A DNA stretch of 64,000 bases from the NCBI GenBank assembly GCA_027320085.1, contig DAHVLZ010000009.1, forward strand, positions 265,017 to 329,016. Direction: 5' to 3'. Shown here piece after piece: positions 28,882 to 55,776 of the stretch. Position 1 is the stretch's first letter, and the number at the start of each line of letters is the position of its first letter. Below the pieces are notes generated by a model. That model was not told where the DNA came from. It searched no databases and saw only the letters and a list, made by a program, of their open reading frames with translations. Made by a program: the position numbers and the translations under genes. Origin of the DNA: Pseudomonadota bacterium (GTDB lineage Bacteria; Pseudomonadota; Gammaproteobacteria; JAKAQQ01).

Positions 28882-29442
28882 TTATACAAACCGGATGGAG
28901 GGGAGAAGAATATTGATGAAGAACAGGATTGCGAGCGCCAAAAGGGGAGAAAAGTCGAGCCCACCGGTTGCAGGCACGAAACGACGCAAGGGCCGCAGGA
29001 TCGGTTCATTGATGGCATAAAGAAAACTCGTCATGGGATGCTGCACGTAGGGGGGCTGGATCCAACTCATGAGAGCCCCAACGATCAGAGTAAAAATGTA
29101 AAAATCATCCAAGAGAGTTGCACATTTAACGAGTGCGGCGAGTGCGAGCACACCCCCGCTAAGGGGGCGGCCAGCAATCCCGGCCAAGATGGCCACGTCA
29201 AGCCCGCATAGCACAACGGCGACGATAAGACTCCACCAGTCACGGCGCATCACTCGGCTCCCAGACCAATGGTAGAGTGGCTTCAGAACCGGCCATGTCA
29301 ACCGGCCGATGCTCTGTACTACAGGATGGGAGAAGTTGAGAGGTCCCCAGCTCATGGCGAATCGCGAGAGAAAAAGTAGGGCACCGACCGTGAATAGGAA
29401 ATTCACCAGAAAAAGCCAGGCGCTGGACCAGTGCAGAATCAT
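28882..29442 (-). CDS. yggT: YggT-family membrane protein
   Basis: A 186-aa protein with the duplicated YggT TM repeat. It lies immediately downstream of proC, as in many proteobacteria. Confidence 0.75.
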   Translation of the reverse strand: MILHWSSAWLFLVNFLFTVGALLFLSRFAMSWGPLNFSHPVVQSIGRLTWPVLKPLYHWSGSRVMRRDWWSLIVAVVLCGLDVAILAGIAGRPLSGGVLALAALVKCATLLDDFYIFTLIVGALMSWIQPPYVQHPMTSFLYAINEPILRPLRRFVPATGGLDFSPLLALAILFFINILLPSIRFV

Positions 29443-30260
29443 GCTGTCTCAGTTTCTCGGATTTGTTGCGCCAGTTCGGCGCCCCGTTCCCACGCGGCCG
29501 TTAGGGCCTGCGTAACGGCCGCCTCGAAACCCAGCTTTCGAAGTTGCTCGAGTGCCGCAGCCGTGGTTCCACCTGGCGAAGTCACTCCTTCTCGCAGGCG
29601 TTCGAAATCCCCCCCATCTTGATCAGCCAGTTCCAAACTTCCCCGCCCGGTTTGCAACACAAGATCCGTCGCGAGAGCGGGATCCATCCCCTTGGCGGCT
29701 GCCGCATTTCGGAGACAAGCCATGAAGTGGAAAAAGTAGGCCGGGCCGCTACCGGCAAGGGCAGTGACCCCGTCCATCCACTCTTCCGATTTGAGCCAGT
29801 AGAGTCGTCCCAACCGACCGAGCAAATCTTCCAGGGTCTCATGATGCTCGGGTGCGAGATCAGGAGCATAGAGGGCAATCGCTCCCTGGTTCAGGGCTAT
29901 CGCTAAATTCGGCATGGCCCGGATCACAACCGTTTGCCCCTCACAACACCACCGGCAGATCATCTCGCGTGTGATCCCTGCCACAAAGCTTACCAGCAGG
30001 CGGCGTCGGCCAACGAGGTGGGAGGCAGCCGTTTCGAGCACCTGCCGCAGGGATCCCGGCCGGACAGCCACCAAAATCAGGTCGGATTCTGCCACCACCC
30101 GTCCCACATCATCCGACACAAAAGCACCTGACTCAGCCTTGATCCGTGAGCGCCGATCGGGATCACTTTCCGCTATAGAGAGGCGAGACGAGCTCCAGCC
30201 ACTTCGCAAAAGTCCGGCAATGCAAGCCCCCCCCAAGTGTCCAGCCCCGAGAACCCCCAC
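29439..30260 (-). CDS. proC: Pyrroline-5-carboxylate reductase
   Basis: A GTG start is preceded by GGGAAA. The N-terminus KVGVLGAGHLGGA is a Rossmann fold and the C-terminal dimerisation domain is present. The long upstream extension of the reported ORF is non-coding. Confidence 0.85.
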   Translation of the reverse strand: MGVLGAGHLGGACIAGLLRSGWSSSRLSIAESDPDRRSRIKAESGAFVSDDVGRVVAESDLILVAVRPGSLRQVLETAASHLVGRRRLLVSFVAGITREMICRWCCEGQTVVIRAMPNLAIALNQGAIALYAPDLAPEHHETLEDLLGRLGRLYWLKSEEWMDGVTALAGSGPAYFFHFMACLRNAAAAKGMDPALATDLVLQTGRGSLELADQDGGDFERLREGVTSPGGTTAAALEQLRKLGFEAAVTQALTAAWERGAELAQQIRETETA

Positions 30261-30283
30261 TTTCCCGATATCCCGGCTTGGAG

Positions 30284-30304
30284 CCCCCCCCCTTGGGGGG
30301 GGGG
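30284..30304. repeat. Perfect homopolymeric inverted repeat C9-TT-G10
   Basis: The sequence cccccccccttgggggggggg is read directly. It lies in the divergent proC/pilT intergenic region, 74 nt upstream of the pilT ATG. Confidence 0.9.
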
Positions 30305-30377
30305 CGGGACGGCTTGCCGTTCTTGTCACTTCGCTATACCTTGTAGGGAGCCCTGATGTTAACCCAGGAAAGTTTTC

Positions 30378-31448
30378 ATGCCTGAAGAAGCCATTCGCAT
30401 CCTTGATATAGCCCAGCTTTTGGAGTTCGGCGTACGAAACAACGCCTCCGACCTCCATATTTCCGCCGGCGAGCCCCCGATGATCCGGGTCGATGGAGAC
30501 ATCCGACGAATCAATTTGCCGCCCCTCGATGGAAAGAAAGTGCATGACATGATCTACGACATTATGAACGATAAACAAAGGAAGCACTTTGAGGAATTCA
30601 TGGATTGCGATTTTTCTTTTGAAATCAGTAAGCTAGCACGGTTCCGGGTCAACGCGTTCAATCAACGCAGGGGGCCAGGTGCAGTCTTCCGTACCATTCC
30701 CTCCGATGTCAAGACACTCGAGGATCTCGCCAGTCCGCCGACCTTCAAGGAACTCGTATTGCGACCCCGTGGGCTTGTCCTGGTCACCGGGCCAACCGGG
30801 TCCGGGAAGTCGACGACGCTCGCCGCCATGGTCAACCACGTCAACGAAAGTGTCATGTCCCACATTCTCACGATCGAGGACCCGATCGAGTTCGTGCACC
30901 AATCCAAGAAGTGTATTATCAACCAGAGGGAGATCCATGAGCACGCGCTCGGATTCGCAGAGGCCTTGCGTGCCGGATTGCGTGAAGATCCGGACGTGAT
31001 TTTAGTAGGTGAAATGCGTGATCTCGAAACCATCCGTCTGGCTCTCACAGCCGCCGAAACCGGTCACTTGGTTTTTGCAACCCTGCACACGAGTTCTGCC
31101 GCCAAGACAGTCGACCGTATCGTTGATGTCTTCCCGGCTGCCGAGAAGGATATGGTCCGCACCATGCTTTCCGAGTCACTGCAGGCTGTCATCTCGCAAA
31201 CCTTGCTCAAAAAGGTCGGCGGTGGACGGATTGCTGCCTACGAAATCATGACAGCCACTCCTGCGATCCGCAACCTGATTCGGGAAAACAAAGTAGCCCA
31301 GATGTACTCGGCCATCCAGACTGGGCAGGCACACGGCATGCAAACGTTGGACCAGTGCCTGTCTGAGTTGCTCCGCCGGGGCGCCATCACACGGGAGCAA
31401 GCTCGCATCAAGGCAACCAACAAAGAGCTGTTCGCCCCAGGGGGATAA
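30378..31448 (+). CDS. pilT: Type IV pilus retraction ATPase PilT
   Basis: Identity to PilT is high and near-continuous (MIRVDGDIRRINLPPL, LVLVTGPTGSGKSTTLAAM, AIRNLIRENKVAQMYSAIQTG). Confidence 0.9.
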   Translation: MPEEAIRILDIAQLLEFGVRNNASDLHISAGEPPMIRVDGDIRRINLPPLDGKKVHDMIYDIMNDKQRKHFEEFMDCDFSFEISKLARFRVNAFNQRRGPGAVFRTIPSDVKTLEDLASPPTFKELVLRPRGLVLVTGPTGSGKSTTLAAMVNHVNESVMSHILTIEDPIEFVHQSKKCIINQREIHEHALGFAEALRAGLREDPDVILVGEMRDLETIRLALTAAETGHLVFATLHTSSAAKTVDRIVDVFPAAEKDMVRTMLSESLQAVISQTLLKKVGGGRIAAYEIMTATPAIRNLIRENKVAQMYSAIQTGQAHGMQTLDQCLSELLRRGAITREQARIKATNKELFAPGG

Positions 31449-31451
31449 TTC

Positions 31452-32627
31452 ATGGACCGTGAACAAGCCATTAAGTTCGTCCACGATTTGCTGCGCATCA
31501 TGACCCAGCGCAGAGCCTCGGATCTCTTCATCGCAGCTGATTTCCCACCCGCCATGAAGATTGATGGTGAGGTCAAACCGGTATCCGACCGTCCCTTTAC
31601 TGCGGAACAGTCGGGTGTGATTGTCCGTGCCCTTTTCAATGACCGGCAGTCCCGCGAGTTCGATGCAACCAAGGAAATCAGTTTCGCAATAGCGCCGAAG
31701 GGGATTGGTCGGTTCCGGGTCAGTGCCTACGTCGAACAGGGACGGTTGGGTGCAGTTCTCCGCACGATTAATACACAGGTCCCCACAGTTGCCGAACTTG
31801 AGCTTCCACGGATCCTGGAAGACATCTCTCTCACCAAACGCGGGCTCGTGCTGGTGGTCGGAGCAACCGGCTCGGGAAAATCTACCACTCTGGCGGCTAT
31901 GATCCATCACCGGAATATTGTTGCTCATGACCACATTGTTACCATTGAGGATCCCATTGAGTATGTCCACGGTCATGGATCCTGCCTGGTCACCCAGCGC
32001 GAACTGGGCGTGGATACCGAATCTTGGGGGGCCGCCCTCAAAAATACACTGCGACAAGCGCCTGACGTCATCTTGATTGGGGAGATTCGAGATCCTGAAA
32101 CCATGTCATACGCCGTTGAGTTCGCCGAAACCGGACACCTCTGTCTCAGCACCCTGCATGCCAACAATGCCAACCAAGCGTTGGACCGAATCATTAATCT
32201 CTATCCCAAAGAACGGCGTCAGCAGTTGCTCATGGACCTTTCGCTGAACCTCAAAGCCATGGTCTCCCAGCGCCTCCTCCGACGGGCAAGCGGTACCGGC
32301 CGAGTGGCAGCCTTGGAAATCCTGGTCAACACGCCGTTGGCCGCTGACCTGATCTTCAAGGGTGAAATTGCCGAGCTCAAGGAACTAATGGCAAAGTCAG
32401 TCAACGCTGGTATGCAAACATTCGACCAAGCGATTTTTGACCTTTACGAGAACGGTACCATTAGCTACGAGGAGGCACTCCGCAATGCCGACTCACAGAA
32501 TGAGCTACGCCTCCGGATTAAGCTCGAAAGCAAACGGGCTTCACGACCAGACGATTCCGAGCTTGATCAGCTTCATTTATCGGAACCGGAAACGGCGCAA
32601 CCCAAGTCACTTCGTCCCGGAAAATAA
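31452..32627 (+). CDS. pilU: Type IV pilus ATPase PilU
   Basis: It shows the PilU-type sequence (GIGRFRVSAY, GATGSGKSTTLAAMI, HANNANQALDRI) and has the characteristic C-terminal extension. Confidence 0.9.
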   Translation: MDREQAIKFVHDLLRIMTQRRASDLFIAADFPPAMKIDGEVKPVSDRPFTAEQSGVIVRALFNDRQSREFDATKEISFAIAPKGIGRFRVSAYVEQGRLGAVLRTINTQVPTVAELELPRILEDISLTKRGLVLVVGATGSGKSTTLAAMIHHRNIVAHDHIVTIEDPIEYVHGHGSCLVTQRELGVDTESWGAALKNTLRQAPDVILIGEIRDPETMSYAVEFAETGHLCLSTLHANNANQALDRIINLYPKERRQQLLMDLSLNLKAMVSQRLLRRASGTGRVAALEILVNTPLAADLIFKGEIAELKELMAKSVNAGMQTFDQAIFDLYENGTISYEEALRNADSQNELRLRIKLESKRASRPDDSELDQLHLSEPETAQPKSLRPGK

Positions 32628-32666
32628 TCTCCTGCCAACTCCCCGATACCCTGTCTGGAAACTTAG

Positions 32667-33722
32667 ATGAATCTAGAACCTTATCTGCGCCTGATGGCCG
32701 AAAGAGCCGCCTCGGATTTGTACCTGACCACAGGCTCGCCCATCAAGATCCGAGTCCAAGGGAGAGTTCTATCTGTGGGCCGGACTCCACTCGACGAATC
32801 GATGATCAGGGAAGCGACCCTTGGCATCATGAATGAAGCACTGATCAACCAGTTCGAGAATCGTCACCAAGCTGAATTCCCCCTGGAAATTACCGGAGTA
32901 GGGCGTTACCGGGTGAATGTGTTTCTCGAACGAGGCCGGGTTGCCATGGCCATCCGTTTTATTCCGATCAAGATCCCTGAATTGGACACCTTGGGGTTAC
33001 CTGGAGTTTTGAAGGAGCTGATTCGTGCACCAAGAGGACTCATCCTTGTCGTGGGCGCGACAGGTGCTGGGAAATCCACAACCCTGGCTTCCTTGATTGA
33101 CTACCGTAATGCACACCAGGCGGACCATATTCTCACCATTGAGGATCCCATCGAGTACGTCTACGAAAACCGCCTCTCGATTGTGAATCAACGTGAGGTC
33201 GGGAACGACGTTCTGAGTTACGCAGATGCCTTGCGTAGCGCATTGCGCGCGACACCCGATGTTCTGCTTATTGGTGAAATTCGGGACTCAGAGACCATGT
33301 CTGCCGCAGTTGAAATGGCCGCGACGGGCCACCTCACCTTGGCCACACTCCATACCAGCAATGCCCATCAGACCCTTGAACGGATCCTCAACTTGTACTC
33401 CGAATCGGCCCAGAAACTGGTACTGACTGACCTTTCAATCAACATGCGGGCAATCATCGCCCAGCGGCTGGTTCCCAATGTGGATGCGAAACTGGTTGCA
33501 GCTGTCGAAATCCTGCTCAATACCCCACATATGGCGGACTTGATTCACAAGGGAGAACTCGGTATGTTGCGTGAAGCCATGGAGTCGAGCCATGAAATTG
33601 GAATGCAAACATTCGATACGGCGCTCTACCAGCTCTACCGGGACGGCATCATTGACCTCAAGACCGGACTGAACTATGCCGATTCCCGAACCAACCTTGA
33701 AAACAAGATCCGTTTCGGCTGA
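32667..33722 (+). CDS. Third PilT/PilU-family ATPase paralog (PilU-like)
   Basis: A 351-aa protein with Walker A GATGAGKSTTLASL and the His box HTSNAHQTLERI. It is closest to the PilU subfamily. Confidence 0.85.
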   Translation: MNLEPYLRLMAERAASDLYLTTGSPIKIRVQGRVLSVGRTPLDESMIREATLGIMNEALINQFENRHQAEFPLEITGVGRYRVNVFLERGRVAMAIRFIPIKIPELDTLGLPGVLKELIRAPRGLILVVGATGAGKSTTLASLIDYRNAHQADHILTIEDPIEYVYENRLSIVNQREVGNDVLSYADALRSALRATPDVLLIGEIRDSETMSAAVEMAATGHLTLATLHTSNAHQTLERILNLYSESAQKLVLTDLSINMRAIIAQRLVPNVDAKLVAAVEILLNTPHMADLIHKGELGMLREAMESSHEIGMQTFDTALYQLYRDGIIDLKTGLNYADSRTNLENKIRFG

Positions 33723-35742
33723 ATATTCAACCGTCCCCGTATCTCTCCGCATCATTCCAAGAGTTCTGGGAGTCGGGAGCCTTGTCGCGCTTTGCCTGCT
33801 ACCGGCCTTCGGAGCCGGCCCCACCAAGACGATAAAGAGTGGCACTTCCCTTGTTGCGCCCGGCTTTGCCAATTCCCGCGCCATCCATGTCAGTCTATCC
33901 CCCAACGGCCATTGGCTGGCCATCGCAGGGTATTTCGGTGCTGCCCACCAAGAAGGACTGGCTCTCCTCAACCTGAGGGAGCCCCGCTATGACCAGCGCC
34001 TGCACGTAGTCCGCAAAAGCCAGATCAACCATCTACGGTGGGCAGGGCCCCACGTTCTGCTAGCCACGACCCGGATCAAGCTGCCAGGCTACCGCAAAAC
34101 CCTTCGGAGTGGAGAGATTTGGGCCATCCACCTGATTCATCATCACGCCCAAAGTAGCCTCCTTGCCGGATATCGGAAACAAGGCCTTGCGTTCAACATC
34201 GCTATTTACCTGATCCTGTCCCCACTCGACCATGATCCAGACCGGGTGGTAGTCGAGCGCTATTCTTCCGTTGACCTTGCACCGGAGACCGACATCCTAA
34301 ATGTCCAAACCGGCCTCATGCTGCGTGGGATCCATAGTCCACTGACAAACGGACAACTATTAACCGACAACGACGGGCATGTGCGTCTAGCCTTCGGTAC
34401 GAACGCACTCACCGGACAAATCGAGTTATGGTTCCGGAAACCACATACCCTGGAATGGAAGAATTTGAGCTTTCTCCTCAAGAACTTTGGGCCGGCATCA
34501 AATGTGAGACCCCTCGGGTTTCTACCTGGCAATCGCCACTTTTACCTCCTCCGGACCAGTCATTACGGCACCCTTGGGCTTTATGCCGTAAACCCTGACA
34601 ACGGGAGAGAAACCCGGCTCTATGTCAATCCCAAAAACGATATCCTGAGGATTGCCCGGTCGCCCTCCGGGCGGGTTTATGCGGTCTGGGTGGGGATCCA
34701 GAAACCACACTGGGTTGTGATTGCCCCCAAAAACCGCGAAGCCGAATGGCTTAGATTACTTTCACCGGTCTTCCGCAACCAGCGGGTCACCATCCGGGAC
34801 GTCACCCGTGATCGCACCATGGCTTTGATCCGCGTCCGGGGAGATCGCAATGCGGGAGAATACTATCTCTTCGATCCCAAAAGACACCTCTTGCGATATC
34901 TCCTGAGTACACAACCGGGAATAGCGCCACCTGAACTGTCTTCTTGGCACACGTTCATGCTCCCTTGGCGTGGCCTCAAAGAACCGGTCTATCTGGCTTA
35001 TCCGCACGGTCCGGCCCGTGACCGCAAGGGTTTGGTCGTCTGGATCCATGGGCACCCCTTCGAGGAAGGCATACGCTGGCGTTCTGATCCTCGCCTCCAA
35101 GAACTCACACGCCATGGTTTCGTAGTTATGGAAGTTGACTACCCGGGTTCCTTTGGCCGTGGGAAAGTCTGGCGCCAACTGGGGTACCACCAATGGGGTA
35201 GAACCATGCTGGATGGGATCTGGGCCGCAGTTCGCTGGGTGGCTGGACAGCACGGGATCCCCTTTGGCCGGCTGGCTCTGGCAGGGCATGGTTACGGCGG
35301 ATATGCCGCACTCATGCTCGGAGCCGAGCACCCCAGGCAGGTTCGGGCAATCGTGAGCCTGAACGGCATTTATGAACTGTCGTTGCTGAGAACGCCTGAG
35401 GAGCGATTATGGCGTTCGCCTTTTGGCAGGCGGTTCCTGAATACGGTACTTGGGCATCAACACCTCAATGCCGACTCTCCTCTTGCCCGTGCCCGATCAA
35501 TACGTGCACCAGTTTTCCTGATCCATGGAGGAAGAGACTCCAGGGATCCTTCCGGTGGAGAAAACCATCTTGTATTGATCCTCAAAGAACACTCTGTTCT
35601 GGTCCGGCTCCTTGAAGAACCCACCCAAGGCTGGCATTTCACAGGCGCTCGCACCCGCTCCAAGATTTGGCGTGGGATCGCAACTTTCCTGAACCAGGCA
35701 TTTGCGTCAGGGTCTCCCCTCACCCCGATCCACCGTGACTGA
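33676..35742 (+). CDS. Prolyl-oligopeptidase (S9) family homolog with beta-propeller N-domain; nucleophile Ser replaced by Gly
   Basis: The catalytic-domain elbow reads GHGYGG instead of GxSYGG (Gly codon ggt at 35290-35292). Asp (HGGRDSRD) and His (GWHF) are retained. There is an N-terminal signal-like segment. The start is uncertain because of a 47-nt overlap with the upstream gene. Confidence 0.65.
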   Translation: MPIPEPTLKTRSVSAEYSTVPVSLRIIPRVLGVGSLVALCLLPAFGAGPTKTIKSGTSLVAPGFANSRAIHVSLSPNGHWLAIAGYFGAAHQEGLALLNLREPRYDQRLHVVRKSQINHLRWAGPHVLLATTRIKLPGYRKTLRSGEIWAIHLIHHHAQSSLLAGYRKQGLAFNIAIYLILSPLDHDPDRVVVERYSSVDLAPETDILNVQTGLMLRGIHSPLTNGQLLTDNDGHVRLAFGTNALTGQIELWFRKPHTLEWKNLSFLLKNFGPASNVRPLGFLPGNRHFYLLRTSHYGTLGLYAVNPDNGRETRLYVNPKNDILRIARSPSGRVYAVWVGIQKPHWVVIAPKNREAEWLRLLSPVFRNQRVTIRDVTRDRTMALIRVRGDRNAGEYYLFDPKRHLLRYLLSTQPGIAPPELSSWHTFMLPWRGLKEPVYLAYPHGPARDRKGLVVWIHGHPFEEGIRWRSDPRLQELTRHGFVVMEVDYPGSFGRGKVWRQLGYHQWGRTMLDGIWAAVRWVAGQHGIPFGRLALAGHGYGGYAALMLGAEHPRQVRAIVSLNGIYELSLLRTPEERLWRSPFGRRFLNTVLGHQHLNADSPLARARSIRAPVFLIHGGRDSRDPSGGENHLVLILKEHSVLVRLLEEPTQGWHFTGARTRSKIWRGIATFLNQAFASGSPLTPIHRD

Positions 35743-38617: not shown

Positions 38618-40156
38618 GTGCGACAAATCGTCAAAAACAGTTTACTGGTCGTTTTGAGCGTGACTTCAGCCGGAGCTTGGGCACGCCTGCCAGTTCATGA
38701 ACCCGTCGCTCCTGCCCACCCGATTCTCGGGCGCCGCATTGTCAGCCACGGGGTGGTTGTGGTGGATGGCCGCCGCATCCCTTATACGGCAACCGCGGGA
38801 ACTCTTATTCTCAAAAACAAAAAGAACCAGCCAACAGCTAGCATGTTTTATGTGGCCTATACCCGTTCTGGCGTCCGCCACCTCTCGCAGCGACCGATCA
38901 CATTCGTCTACAACGGTGGACCTGGTTCATCCTCCGTATGGCTACTCATGGGTGGACTCGGTGCTGTCCGGGTTGTCACAGCCAACGCTCGGGTCACCCC
39001 GCCACCACCTTACCCCGTGATTTCCAGCCCATCGAGCCTGTTACCGGTCACCGATCTGGTATTCATTGATGCTGTTGGCACCGGATACAGCCATGTGGTT
39101 GGGGTTGGCCGGGACAAAGATTTCTGGGGAGTCGATGACGACGTGCGCTCTTTTGGACAATTTATTGAGCGCTACATCAGCCAGAACAACCGCTGGAACT
39201 CACCCAAGTTCCTGCTTGGAGAAAGCTATGGGACCACCCGATCGGCCAATCTTGTGGATTACCTCGAGGGGCAAGGAATCACCTGTAATGGCGTGATCCT
39301 GCTTTCCTCTATCTTGAACTACGGGGATTCCTGGCCCGGTACCGATCTGCGTTACATAACCTACCTGCCTTCCTATACGGCAGTCGCCTGGTATCACCAT
39401 GCCTTGCCTGAGCAACCGGCACATCTTGCCCCTCTCATCCGCAAGGTCGAGCAGTTTGCCCGAACCTCCTACGCTTATGCCCTTTTCCAGGGGAGTCGTC
39501 TCAGCCCGGCCAAGAAAGCTGCCGTTCTGGCCACGCTGCATCAATATACAGGCCTCAGTACCGGCTTTCTCGAGGCGGTCCACCTACGGGTCACTCCGGA
39601 CCGTTTTAGAGCGCAACTGCTAAGAGATCGAGGCCGTGAACAGTTTGTTGGCCGGCTTGATGCACGCTTCACAGGGATCAATCGGGATGGGGCCGAGGAA
39701 TCCCCGGACTACGGGGCGCTCATGGCCGCCGTTTCGCCCGCTTTCACGGCGGCATTCAACTGGTATGTCCGCGAACGCCTGCATTACAGCGCTCATCGCG
39801 CCTATCGGGTGATGAACGGGCAGGTTATCCAGAAGTGGAACTGGAATCACCGGTTTCCGGGAGCTGGTTACTCCTGGCCCTTGCCTGATGTTGCACCCAA
39901 CCTGGCGGATGCGATGAGGAAAAACCCCTATCTCCAGATTTTTTCAGGCAATGGATATTTTGACCTCGCAACACCGTTTTACAAGACCGAGTTCGACTTT
40001 GCCCATATGAAACTCCCTCATCGCCTCATGACACGAATCCATTTTCACTTCTACCACTCCGGGCATATGCTCTACCTTCACCCAGCCACCCTGGCTCATC
40101 TTGACCGCAATCTGATCCAGTTCTATCACATGGTTCTTGCCAGAGATCACCAGTAA
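38618..40156 (+). CDS. Peptidase S10 (serine carboxypeptidase) family protein, secreted
   Basis: It has a signal peptide and the GESYGT nucleophile motif (canonical S10 GESYAG). The overall alpha/beta carboxypeptidase length is ~510 aa. Confidence 0.65.
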   Translation: MRQIVKNSLLVVLSVTSAGAWARLPVHEPVAPAHPILGRRIVSHGVVVVDGRRIPYTATAGTLILKNKKNQPTASMFYVAYTRSGVRHLSQRPITFVYNGGPGSSSVWLLMGGLGAVRVVTANARVTPPPPYPVISSPSSLLPVTDLVFIDAVGTGYSHVVGVGRDKDFWGVDDDVRSFGQFIERYISQNNRWNSPKFLLGESYGTTRSANLVDYLEGQGITCNGVILLSSILNYGDSWPGTDLRYITYLPSYTAVAWYHHALPEQPAHLAPLIRKVEQFARTSYAYALFQGSRLSPAKKAAVLATLHQYTGLSTGFLEAVHLRVTPDRFRAQLLRDRGREQFVGRLDARFTGINRDGAEESPDYGALMAAVSPAFTAAFNWYVRERLHYSAHRAYRVMNGQVIQKWNWNHRFPGAGYSWPLPDVAPNLADAMRKNPYLQIFSGNGYFDLATPFYKTEFDFAHMKLPHRLMTRIHFHFYHSGHMLYLHPATLAHLDRNLIQFYHMVLARDHQ

Positions 40157-53416: not shown

Positions 53417-54784
53417 TCAGGTTTCGGGACTTTTTATGGGTAGACGCCGATGGGTACGCTTCCAGATCCAATAGACCGGGATACCCATCAGGGTGAGCCC
53501 CAAGCTCACTAGCACATCGAAGGGTTTCTGCCATAGAGCACCCAGAAGCACCAGAATGGAAGCCAGGAGAAAAGCCCCCGGCACCCAGGGATAGCCCCAA
53601 ACCCGGTAAGGGCGCTCAAGATGAGGACGCTTCTGGCGGAGCCAGAATAATCCGAGGACAGACAACATCAGAAAAGGCCAGATTCCAAGCACATAGGCGG
53701 CAGCCAAGTCAGCAAAGCTCCGAAATGTGACAAAAATGATGGCCAGCACGGCATCCATGAGAATCGCCACATGGGGGGTATGAAACCGGGGATGGGCACG
53801 CCCAACATTCCGGAAAAACAGACCGTCCTCGGCCATGGCATAGAACACCCGAGGGTCGGACATGATACTTCCGTTCAGTGACCCCAAAACGGAAACCATG
53901 ACCAAGAGGGCAACGGCAACGGTGGCGAATGATCCGCCGAACGATGCCAGTGATGCAACAGCCACGGAAGGATGAGCCGCCACACCGGACAGAGACAGAA
54001 TATGGAGATAACCCCCATTGATGCCGAGGTAGAGTACGAGCACGAGGAGGGTTCCGACAATCAGGGAGAGCGGCAGGTTCCGTTCCGGCTCACGCACTTC
54101 ACCTGACAGCGCGGTCAGGTTTTCCCAGCCGTCATAGGCCCAGAGGACTGCAAGAAGCGCCAACATCAATCCACCGAAAACACCAGGACTTGAAGGGGCG
54201 GTCGGAACAGGCGGTAACCGCGGCGCGGTGGATACGGCCGGGTGTACCCAGAACCAGAGCAGGAATCCAAGGCCGAGCAGGGTGACCAGCTTGATCGAGC
54301 CAAACACATTCTGCACCCGTGCCCCCATTCCGACCGAACGGATCTGGATCAGGGCTACACCGGCAATCAGCAGAGCAGACGCCAAGTGGCGCGCAGTACT
54401 GCCCATTGGCAAAAATGTCGCCAGATACTCTGAAAAGATGAGCGACTGAGCCGCCCAGGAGATCGGATCGGTCAGCAGCCACATCCAACCGAAGAGGAAG
54501 GCAGGTACCCGGCCGAAGGCTTCCCGAATATAAACGTAAAGGCCTCCAGCATGAGGATAGAGAGCCGCCAATTCCGCGATCGACAATGCCCCGCAAAGAG
54601 CAATGATGCCTCCCGCAATCCAGACCCCATAGAACAGAAGTGGCGAATCGACATCCAGGGCAACTATCGATGGGACACGGTAGAGCCCTGTTCCAATCAC
54701 GATACCCAAAACGACCATGATCCCGGTGAAGGGGCCCAAACGCCTCACTAGGCCGGTTTTTTCAGCTGCCACTTCTCCGTTCAT
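53417..54784 (-). CDS. APC-family amino acid transporter
   Basis: A 455-aa protein with 12 TM helices. Confidence 0.75.
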   Translation of the reverse strand: MNGEVAAEKTGLVRRLGPFTGIMVVLGIVIGTGLYRVPSIVALDVDSPLLFYGVWIAGGIIALCGALSIAELAALYPHAGGLYVYIREAFGRVPAFLFGWMWLLTDPISWAAQSLIFSEYLATFLPMGSTARHLASALLIAGVALIQIRSVGMGARVQNVFGSIKLVTLLGLGFLLWFWVHPAVSTAPRLPPVPTAPSSPGVFGGLMLALLAVLWAYDGWENLTALSGEVREPERNLPLSLIVGTLLVLVLYLGINGGYLHILSLSGVAAHPSVAVASLASFGGSFATVAVALLVMVSVLGSLNGSIMSDPRVFYAMAEDGLFFRNVGRAHPRFHTPHVAILMDAVLAIIFVTFRSFADLAAAYVLGIWPFLMLSVLGLFWLRQKRPHLERPYRVWGYPWVPGAFLLASILVLLGALWQKPFDVLVSLGLTLMGIPVYWIWKRTHRRLPIKSPET

Positions 54785-55776
54785 GATCGGGGATCCTTCC
54801 AGTGGTGCTGGGTCTTGGTACTACGCTTCGGTTGGAGCAGGCTGGGTCTTGCGCTTGAGTTTTCAAGATCTCCCTTCCGGATCGACTGATGCTGGATCCC
54901 ACCTCGCGCGTGGGTCACCCACTCAAAGTCGACGCCGGTCCGTTCTGAAAAGCGGGCACTAATCTCGAGTCCCAACTCTTCGCCCGGAACGAGTTGAAGG
55001 GGCTCCAAAACGGGTGCGAAAATCTGTTCCCAATGGGTGGTAGGGGAATCGGGTGCAGTCGAGAGGACGACTCCATCAATCAGGTCGGCAGTCCACCACA
55101 TCGCAAACCCAAAGACCCATCCGGTCTGTTCGAACCGCCAATCCACTCGGCACCGTCTTCGGCTCCGGTAGCGGGTACCAAAATCAATCCGATCCCAGAC
55201 GCGCGCAGGTGGGATTCCTGCGAAGTCAGCCGACTGAAAGGTTCGAACATAGAGGTTCTGGCGGCTCAAATGGCTGAGGGGCGTCAAGTCCAGATCCATA
55301 CCGTCGGCCCTCCAGGGGTCGAGTTCAGCCCAAAAACGGGCGCTCCCGACCGGCCGGATATACAGGGTCAGCGCATTCGGTATACGGATTCCGCCCGGTA
55401 CCAGAAACCGTCGCGCATCCCACAAAACCTCTCCGATTCCTTCCTCAAGCCCTAAATTGCCCAAGGTCTCGGAAACTACGAGATCAACCGGCTCCGGGTC
55501 CAGAATCGACCTCGAATCCTCAGCGAAAACCTCGATCCGTGAAAGGCGGTTGCGACGCACAAGGAATTCCGAGAGTTTCGCCAGCGGAATTTCCCGCTCA
55601 TAAAGTGTGGTCGAACGCGCCCCCAAGGCATCAGACATGAATCCCAGCCATCCGGTTCCGGAACCCAGGTCCGCCACGCGGGTTACACCCGGCTGGATTG
55701 CCATTTTCAGGGCCTGGCAGAACGCCTCATTTCGGACACGGTCAGCCGCTAGGCGGCGATGGTAGTCGATCAGCAT
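54781..55776 (-). CDS. Protein arginine N-methyltransferase-like class I SAM methyltransferase
   Basis: Motif I reads VADLGSGTGWLG. A PRMT-specific THW loop is present (TTHWEQ). The 3' end overlaps the downstream permease start (ATGA). Confidence 0.6.
   Translation of the reverse strand: MLIDYHRRLAADRVRNEAFCQALKMAIQPGVTRVADLGSGTGWLGFMSDALGARSTTLYEREIPLAKLSEFLVRRNRLSRIEVFAEDSRSILDPEPVDLVVSETLGNLGLEEGIGEVLWDARRFLVPGGIRIPNALTLYIRPVGSARFWAELDPWRADGMDLDLTPLSHLSRQNLYVRTFQSADFAGIPPARVWDRIDFGTRYRSRRRCRVDWRFEQTGWVFGFAMWWTADLIDGVVLSTAPDSPTTHWEQIFAPVLEPLQLVPGEELGLEISARFSERTGVDFEWVTHARGGIQHQSIRKGDLENSSARPSLLQPKRSTKTQHHWKDPRS

Follow-up and report, generated by a model that had tools for sequence, protein, structure and literature searches.

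We analyzed a tandem array of three genes for PilT-family ATPases of the type IVa pilus (T4aP), which lies on the forward strand of a 64,000-nucleotide stretch of contig DAHVLZ010000009.1 from the Pseudomonadota assembly GCA_027320085.1; this whole stretch is called the window and its numbering is used throughout. The first two open reading frames (ORFs), ORF1 and ORF2, are a textbook PilT-PilU pair, and the third, ORF3, is recognized here from its sequence as a probable member of a conserved group of PilU-like ATPases that end without the C-terminal extension of PilU. All three proteins matched the whole length of the NCBIfam model TIGR01420 ('PilT/PilU family type 4a pilus ATPase'), with 500.9, 434.4 and 406.2 bits for ORF1, ORF2 and ORF3, respectively, in comparison to a curated cut-off of 319.1 bits, and with E-values of 1e-150 to 1e-121, and chance is excluded as the source of these matches; Pfam T2SSE (PF00437) also matched each of them. 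Pairwise identity was 39% for ORF1 and ORF2, 41% for ORF1 and ORF3, and 45% for ORF2 and ORF3, and because it is this low the three genes are regarded as old paralogs; a recent tandem duplication was ruled out by these values together with the presence of orthologs across several orders.

All three genes start with ATG and have a purine-rich stretch upstream of the start codon. The gap between ORF1 and ORF2 is 3 nt (31449-31451) and that between ORF2 and ORF3 is 39 nt, and a site scan found no terminator-like or promoter-like site in either gap, all terminator-like matches of the scan being inside coding regions. Since the gaps are short and free of terminator-like sites, a single transcript of pilT, pilU and the third gene is likely, and the three genes probably form one transcription unit. 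A pattern search found Walker A, Asp box and Walker B in all three proteins; the corresponding search of the three proteins for the His box gave no match, and the His box of ORF3 was taken from its translation and alignment instead. An earlier reading of this DNA from its letters alone (the sequence-only reading) had proposed three tandem, full-length PilT-family genes of which the third, PilU-like and 351 amino acids (aa) long, belongs to the same operon and has intact Walker A and Asp/His boxes. Its coordinates and both gap lengths proved exact, motif search, translation and clade alignment agree with its description of the third protein, and its operon is probable, while the missing C-terminal extension, by which ORF3 is distinguished from PilU, had escaped it.

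The significance of that extension follows from recent work on the PilT-PilU pair, according to which PilT bridges PilU to the machine, the C-terminal extension of PilU wraps the PilT hexamer, the PilU C-terminus and K348 are required, with K348 forming a salt bridge to D2/E53 of PilT, and the AIRNLIRE motif on the face of PilT is modelled against the PilC platform; the same authors proposed that PilU evolved through loss of AIRNLIRE and gain of the extension (Teipen et al., 10.1101/2025.10.30.685630). Their published AlphaFold 3 ipTM was 0.63 for PilT with PilU and, at background level, about 0.37 for PilU with PilC. PilU needs PilT (PMC6762196), and its final ~30 residues form a disordered stretch that PilT usually does not have (a 2025 mBio paper, PMC12607626). 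In the window, AIRNLIRE is present in ORF1 and absent from ORF2 and ORF3. ORF1 is 72% to 77% identical to PilT of Pseudomonas, Marinobacter and other loci, and in a neighbor-joining (NJ) tree of 137 PilT-family proteins from the retrieved loci, no Neisseria sequence (and no Neisseria PilT2) being included, it falls in the PilT clade with 100% bootstrap, a split that leaves out ORF2 and ORF3; we thus classify it as PilT. ORF2 is 56% to 69% identical to the pilT-adjacent PilU of other loci, lies inside their clade with 96% bootstrap, and reads TPLAADLIFKG (LAADLIFKGE) at the AIRNLIRE region. It has the PilU C-terminal extension, and its K357 falls in the column of V. cholerae K348 (the Lys of the I-K-L motif, with solved sequences registered by Walker-A numbering), which is Lys in 35 of 35 pilT-adjacent PilU sequences. 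By these features ORF2 is assigned as a canonical PilU.

As a separate observation, PilT of this lineage carries an 8-residue N-terminal extension (MPEEAIRIL; 30378-30404) ahead of the canonical D-I-x-x-L-L start, giving lengths of 353-356 aa in the relatives vs 344-346 aa in most other loci. Codon 9 (L9) is CTT, and there is no internal canonical start that would give the usual M-D-I N-terminus. By hand alignment to the canonical PilT N-terminus, D10, R43/R44 and D61 are the equivalents of D2, R35/K36 and E53, and because of the extension the equivalent of the PilU-contact residue D2 lies off the N-terminus, at D10.

ORF3 is nearer to PilU than to PilT and its catalytic motifs are intact. The reading frame has no frameshift and no internal stop, and its family match spans positions 2-342 of the 343 positions of TIGR01420. 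The Asp box reads TIEDPIE and the His box ATGHLTLATLHT; in an alignment of the ORF3 clade (18 sequences, which also served as input for the AlphaFold model) the residues of Walker A, Asp box, Walker B and His box are invariant, including the T220, G221, H222, T227 and H229 columns of the His box. In place of AIRNLIRE the protein has HMADLIHKGE, and H288 is a signature of the clade: 89% of third genes have H here, 97% of pilT-adjacent PilU have L, and PilT has A. Only two residues of the chain follow the K348-equivalent position, and 14 follow the ADS motif. The best solved-structure relative is PilU of P. aeruginosa (PDB 9n32, 49% identity). The AlphaFold model (mean predicted local distance difference test score, pLDDT, 81.9; predicted template modelling score, pTM, 0.73) has the expected two-domain fold, with an N-terminal PAS-like domain and a C-terminal RecA-like ATPase domain. 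It gave template modelling (TM) scores of 0.86-0.88 against 9n32 over about 350 columns, equal to the 350 ordered residues of PilU, and Foldseek TM scores of 0.82-0.92 against PilU 9n32 and the PilT structures 6ojx, 6ok2 and 3jvv. ORF3 therefore corresponds to the ordered core of PilU without any addition. Judged as PilU in the strict sense, ORF3 has the PilT-like core without AIRNLIRE and lacks both the extension and a place in the pilT-adjacent PilU clade, and because these two are missing it was not filed as PilU; judged as PilT in the strict sense, it has neither AIRNLIRE nor a place in the PilT clade.

To see how ORF3 relates to other third genes, we used a scan with one genome per GTDB species, from which the best 80 of at least 600 candidates were kept, so that the sample is biased and all prevalence values are lower bounds; the species of the window itself was not among the loci returned. 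At least 27 of these best 80 loci carry a third-type gene. We defined the group as proteins of 350-353 aa that end in ...ADS-x-x-[ND]-L-E-x-[KR]-[IV]-x-F-G plus stop and are encoded directly downstream of pilU, and ORF3 agrees in length, terminus and position (39 nt after pilU). All 27 third genes end 14-15 residues past the ADS motif with ...NLEAKINFG-type termini, in comparison to a median tail after this motif of 42 residues in pilT-adjacent PilU and 32 residues in unlinked ('solo') PilU-like genes. Among the 120 best database homologs of ORF3, 114 are 350-353 aa long and end in ...[NRS]FG. In a two-fold held-out test with hidden Markov models (HMMs) built on the core only, with all sequences ended at the ADS motif to keep the terminus out of the comparison, 27 of 27 third genes were correctly classified with a median margin of 86 bits. 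In the NJ tree all third genes but one (L064) cluster, apart from both pilT-adjacent PilU and the solo genes; the pilT-adjacent PilU clade (Pseudomonas, Marinobacter and the middle genes of triple arrays) leaves out all third genes, and the split that places them outside all other PilU has 60% bootstrap. The K348 column is N in 23 of 27 third genes and R or K in 38 of 47 solo genes; ORF3 has R349 there, so that the charge is kept where the group consensus is N. The held-out HMMs and the shared terminus thus support the third genes as one recognizable, conserved group. At 50% clustering it is reduced to a few representatives (P0002, P0006, P0137, P0144), and it appears compact in sequence space though its members are many. 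The features of the locus are collected in Table 1.

Table 1. Positions of the genes, motifs and spacers of the three-gene array in the window
Feature	Position	Strand	Basis or remark
Divergent proC/pilT intergenic region, presumed promoter region	30120..30377	.	upper bound; true proC start probably near 30266
ORF1, pilT, predicted primary type IVa pilus retraction ATPase, 356 aa	30378..31448	+	TIGR01420, AIRNLIRE, PilT clade
AIRNLIRE motif of PilT, proposed PilC-facing signature	31263..31286	+	residues 296-303; 'TPAIRNLIREN' match at residue 294
ORF2, pilU, predicted canonical PilT-dependent accessory retraction ATPase, 391 aa	31452..32627	+	TIGR01420, PilU clade, K357
PilU K357 (= V. cholerae K348) and 34-residue C-terminal extension	32520..32624	+	alignment column analysis
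pilU-to-third-gene spacer, 39 nt	32628..32666	.	GGAAA purine stretch 6 nt before ATG
ORF3, third gene, predicted tail-less PilU-like ATPase, 351 aa	32667..33722	+	TIGR01420, held-out HMM, AlphaFold model
ORF3 Walker A GATGAGKS, K136	33054..33077	+	pattern match; invariant in clade alignment
ORF3 Walker B and catalytic Glu PDVLLIGEIRD, E204	33255..33287	+	pattern match; D198, G203, E204, R206 and D207 invariant
PilU-type replacement of AIRNLIRE region in ORF3, TPHMADLIHKG	33522..33554	+	motif comparison
ORF3 conserved C-terminus ADSRTNLENKIRFG and stop codon	33678..33722	+	R349 in K348-equivalent column, no extension after

The array occurs commonly, not only in the parent lineage but also far outside it in environmental Gammaproteobacteria. 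The full triplet was found in at least 21 of the best 80 loci, that is, in 20 of the 27 loci as called ORFs and in one more (L008) where the 3' end of pilT lies at the contig edge, and the record titles of the triplets include Steroidobacter, Steroidobacteraceae, Woeseiaceae, Chromatiales and Beggiatoa. Two further contigs (L010 and Lamprocystis) begin inside pilU, so that only the pilU-third pair is visible, and a Methylobacter contig (L067) starts too near the third-type gene to be informative. The closest named relatives are metagenome-assembled genomes (MAGs) labelled 'Gammaproteobacteria bacterium', and the DNA of the window is also present in an ENA metagenome contig and in GenBank assembly GCA_021828425.1. 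Gene order in the 89% relative is identical to that of the window, the 63% relative has hup-yggT-proC and then pilT-pilU-third-recG, and the 57% relative has yggS-proC-yggT and then pilT (344 aa), pilU (389 aa) and the third gene (352 aa). The rarity implied by the sequence-only reading is therefore contradicted by these three relatives and the species-representative loci, and its premise that pilT is joined by pilU in most bacteria with type IV pili was overstated, since the clade with PilU makes up the smaller part of T4aP systems (Denise et al. 2019, PMC6668835). It had also considered that the arrangement might be common in the lineage and already annotated as pilU2: common it is, and JGI/IMG names the relatives of ORF2 and ORF3 alike 'twitching motility protein PilU', but the label pilU2 was found only for differently arranged genes of Chromobacterium and Kingella.

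Some observations on single members and neighbors of the group may be added. Two more short, tail-less PilU-like representatives, P0168 (353 aa) and P0162 (355 aa), are without the ...INFG terminus of the group, and tail-less PilU-like proteins may have arisen more than once. P0137 (484 aa) combines a third-gene-like end (...RVQFG) with a partial duplication of the N-terminal domain. An apparent 130-residue insertion in Beggiatoa-type third genes (L016 and L048; 483-487 aa) was rejected, the trimmed homologous region being 352 aa, and is blamed on longest-ORF calling. Gene fusions were considered as evidence of an interaction between PilU and the third protein and gave no support, since the two-module proteins prove to be double PilT-like fusions: P0134-P0140, P0142, P0160 and P0214 (700-1024 aa, from the library of 50% representatives) have two PilT-like ATPase modules per chain, with AIR-like motifs in their C-terminal halves, come from unrelated lineages and are apparently natural double-PilT fusions. 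Marinobacter loci of different species (L053 and L066 vs L073 and L083) encode two types of protein, a PilU next to pilT and a distinct, unlinked PilU-like one, which suggests frequent occurrence of unlinked third paralogs in other Gammaproteobacteria as well.

Selection on the three genes was estimated by the Nei-Gojobori method against the orthologs in the closest relative found (L092, with 89% protein identity for ORF3). The ratio of nonsynonymous to synonymous substitution rates (dN/dS) was 0.026, 0.019 and 0.059 for pilT, pilU and the third gene, respectively; dS approaches saturation in this comparison, but the ratio of the uncorrected proportions (pN/pS) is still about 0.1. These values point to purifying selection on the third gene.

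On balance, we lean slightly towards the reading that the locus is a vertically inherited operon of pilT, pilU and the third gene, in which ORF3 would be a third, co-expressed accessory retraction ATPase with a coupling unlike the tail clasp of PilU. ORF3 would then be a further hexameric ATPase on the same type IVa pilus machine, which by itself would neither dock on PilC nor hold PilT by a tail. With both the proposed PilC-facing motif and the PilT-clasping tail missing, its coupling would have to differ from that of PilU: it might bind PilT or PilU solely through contacts of the ring faces, with R349 as an aid in this window, or it might be a competitor of PilU for PilT. Under either option the cell would have a second state of its accessory motors, in which retraction differs in force or speed. 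The sequence-only reading had suggested that an extra motor may serve specialised pili, for example in DNA uptake, or provide differential retraction force. Several points weigh against this reading. Every step past an intact PilU-like ATPase co-located with pilTU is inferred, and the real partner of ORF3 could be another pilus system encoded at a different place in the genome. The 4.8 kb upstream of the pilU-third pair of Halochromatium glycolicum DSM 11080 (L017, 4794-7056) contain no pilT, and the 1.8 kb upstream of the tail-less gene in a Thiomargarita MAG (L047, 1790-2848) contain no PilT-family match; because of these variants linkage to pilT is not obligatory. Strict monophyly of the third genes has an NJ bootstrap of only 26% to 36%. 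In addition, ORF3 is the most divergent member of the group, with only +10 bits over the 'solo' PilU-like profile, and it has R349 where most of the group has N, so that its lineage may keep a PilU-like salt bridge and act more like an ordinary PilU.

Whether the tail-less ATPase amounts to a distinct third type IVa motor state, in a group that is perhaps also a pre-tail evolutionary intermediate, is a more speculative matter, and we regard it as unlikely. PilT would in that case pair with either the tailed PilU or the tail-less paralog, or three rings would stack, and if true, the result would be a three-motor 'gearbox' that sets the force or speed regime of retraction. The group may preserve the intermediate proposed by Teipen et al., with AIRNLIRE lost and the tail not yet gained, an idea that fits because the third genes are placed outside all tailed PilU in the NJ tree.

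It is equally doubtful, in our estimation, that the third gene is simply a second PilU, that is, a redundant or dosage copy which works like PilU in lineages where the tail is dispensable. The grouping of the third gene with PilU and not with PilT, the name PilU given to it by JGI, the basic R349 at the K348-equivalent position in the window, and the short PilU-like proteins outside the group (P0168 and P0162) are all consistent with such a copy. Its identity to the co-resident PilU is only 45%, however, and the gene is kept beside a tailed PilU in many orders, with an invariant terminus and signature residues of its own; the K348 position is N in 23 of 27 third genes, in contrast to the uniform K of pilT-adjacent PilU, and redundant copies are not normally kept this long at a dN/dS of about 0.06.

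That the third protein acts as a modulator or antagonist seems rather improbable; in this case its tail-less rings, or rings mixed with PilU, would block PilT or draw off PilU subunits, and forceful retraction would be damped or gated with no motor power added. The lack of both known docking elements (AIRNLIRE and the tail) and the position of the gene as the last in the operon would suit this role, and effects of PilU on PilT that are independent of its ATPase activity also exist (10.1101/2025.10.30.685630). Against this role, PilT and PilU are reported to be homohexameric (PMC6821130), and the catalytic residues are all invariant across the group, so that ATP hydrolysis likely matters. We likewise hold it improbable that the third gene serves another filament machine, such as a second type IV pilus, a mannose-sensitive hemagglutinin (MSHA)-like pilus or a type II secretion system, and is merely housed beside pilTU. 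The PilT/PilU pair of V. cholerae does serve two pilus systems (PMC6762196), Halochromatium and Thiomargarita have the third-type gene separated from pilT, and further pilus genes that would tie the gene to one system are absent from the window; the tight and widely conserved linkage directly downstream of pilU argues against this, as does the lack of an AIRNLIRE-like platform-docking motif in ORF3. A truncated or decaying pilU duplicate, pseudogene or gene-calling artefact, which the sequence-only reading had raised and for which only the 40 residues by which the third gene falls short of the neighboring PilU could be cited, was ruled out for practical purposes by the intact ORF with its nearly complete profile coverage, the same terminus in more than 100 independent 90%-identity clusters, the low dN/dS and the confident predicted fold.

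Compared with known systems, the genes ORF1 and ORF2 match the PilT-PilU pairs of V. cholerae, A. baylyi and P. aeruginosa in adjacency, in AIRNLIRE being confined to PilT, and in the Lys and extension of PilU. ORF3 shares with those systems the PilU-type core, the lack of AIRNLIRE and the fold of P. aeruginosa PilU; the difference is the extra third motor gene itself, which is without the PilT-wrapping extension and in most of the group has Asn in place of the Lys. The solo PilU-like genes of Xanthomonadales, Legionella, Marinobacter and Halieaceae are likewise PilU-like, without AIRNLIRE and 47% to 52% identical to ORF3, but they are tailed, mostly have a basic residue at the K348 column, are classed apart by the HMMs, and have no PilT-family gene in the retrieved flanks of up to 6 kb. 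Two PilU-named genes per genome also occur as 'PilU1/PilU2' in the Betaproteobacteria Chromobacterium violaceum and Kingella kingae, where a pilT-pilU2 pair and an unlinked pilU1 (CV_0179, CV_0180, CV_1458) are found instead of a three-gene tandem; no function has been described for these genes.

Neisseria PilT2 is likewise a third PilT-family ATPase beside PilT and PilU; it is PilT-like rather than PilU-like and is not known to belong to the pilT-pilU operon. It cannot replace PilT (PMC6762196), and it is reported to modulate retraction speed (PMC10790696). Several intact PilT-family paralogs are also known from Myxococcus xanthus (PilU MXAN_1995 and three others; PMC13584747) and Geobacter (four PilT; PMC5065972), and these carry Walker and Asp/His boxes and show graded motility phenotypes; unlike the tandem array studied here, they are dispersed genes, in Myxococcota and Desulfuromonadota, and the PilU of M. 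xanthus, quite unlike the tail-less ORF3, ends in a disordered tail of unusual length. By analogy, Neisseria PilT2 and the extra PilT paralogs of Myxococcus and Geobacter may be the nearest functional counterparts of ORF3, though unlinked and from other lineages. In the literature covered, which was incomplete, we found no published description of a tandem, tail-less third paralog.

In current models, PilU reaches the pilus machine solely via PilT, to which it is linked by its C-terminal tail and the conserved lysine. A widespread, naturally tail-less PilU-like motor beside a normal PilT-PilU pair is a ready-made test of this tail-clasp model, because either other ring-to-ring contacts suffice or the tail-less protein competes, regulates or serves another machine, and the group also bears on the evolution of multi-motor retraction. 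Should the third gene be only a redundant PilU, the matter would become a routine point of annotation, and the two downstream genes should not both be called simply 'PilU'.

The genomic neighborhood of the array is otherwise ordinary. Upstream and divergent are proC, yggT and an HU-family gene, and downstream follow an S9-family peptidase gene, recG and ubiC, and the locus is placed divergently from proC-yggT as in many Gammaproteobacteria. The rest of the window contains no other pilus genes and consists of ordinary chromosomal housekeeping genes. A promoter scan found no sigma-70 consensus on the forward strand upstream of pilT, and an Rfam scan of the whole window gave no match. The longest proC ORF (29439-30587, reverse strand; 382 aa, GTG start) runs into the start of pilT; because the match to the ProC Rossmann fold begins at residue 109 of this long ORF, the real start probably lies near 30266, and the public proC gene call of 226 aa looks too short, being without the nicotinamide adenine dinucleotide phosphate (NADP)-binding domain. 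Long antisense ORFs (31176-32057 on the reverse strand and others; up to 293 aa) overlap pilT and pilU, and no gene is listed there in the public gene calls of the contig; they are taken to be by-products of base composition and not genes. At the other end of the array, the ORF of the S9-family (prolyl oligopeptidase-type) peptidase (33676-35742) overlaps the 3' end of the third gene by 47 nt. This ORF is present in the 89% relative and absent from the 63% relative, where recG directly follows the third gene, which suggests that it was inserted between the pilus operon and recG in this lineage only. Farther away, matches were seen to Peptidase_S10 (serine carboxypeptidase) at 38618-40156 on the forward strand and to PRMT5_C/PRMT_C (protein arginine methyltransferase) at 54781-55776 on the reverse strand, families that are typically eukaryotic and would be unusual in a gammaproteobacterial chromosome.

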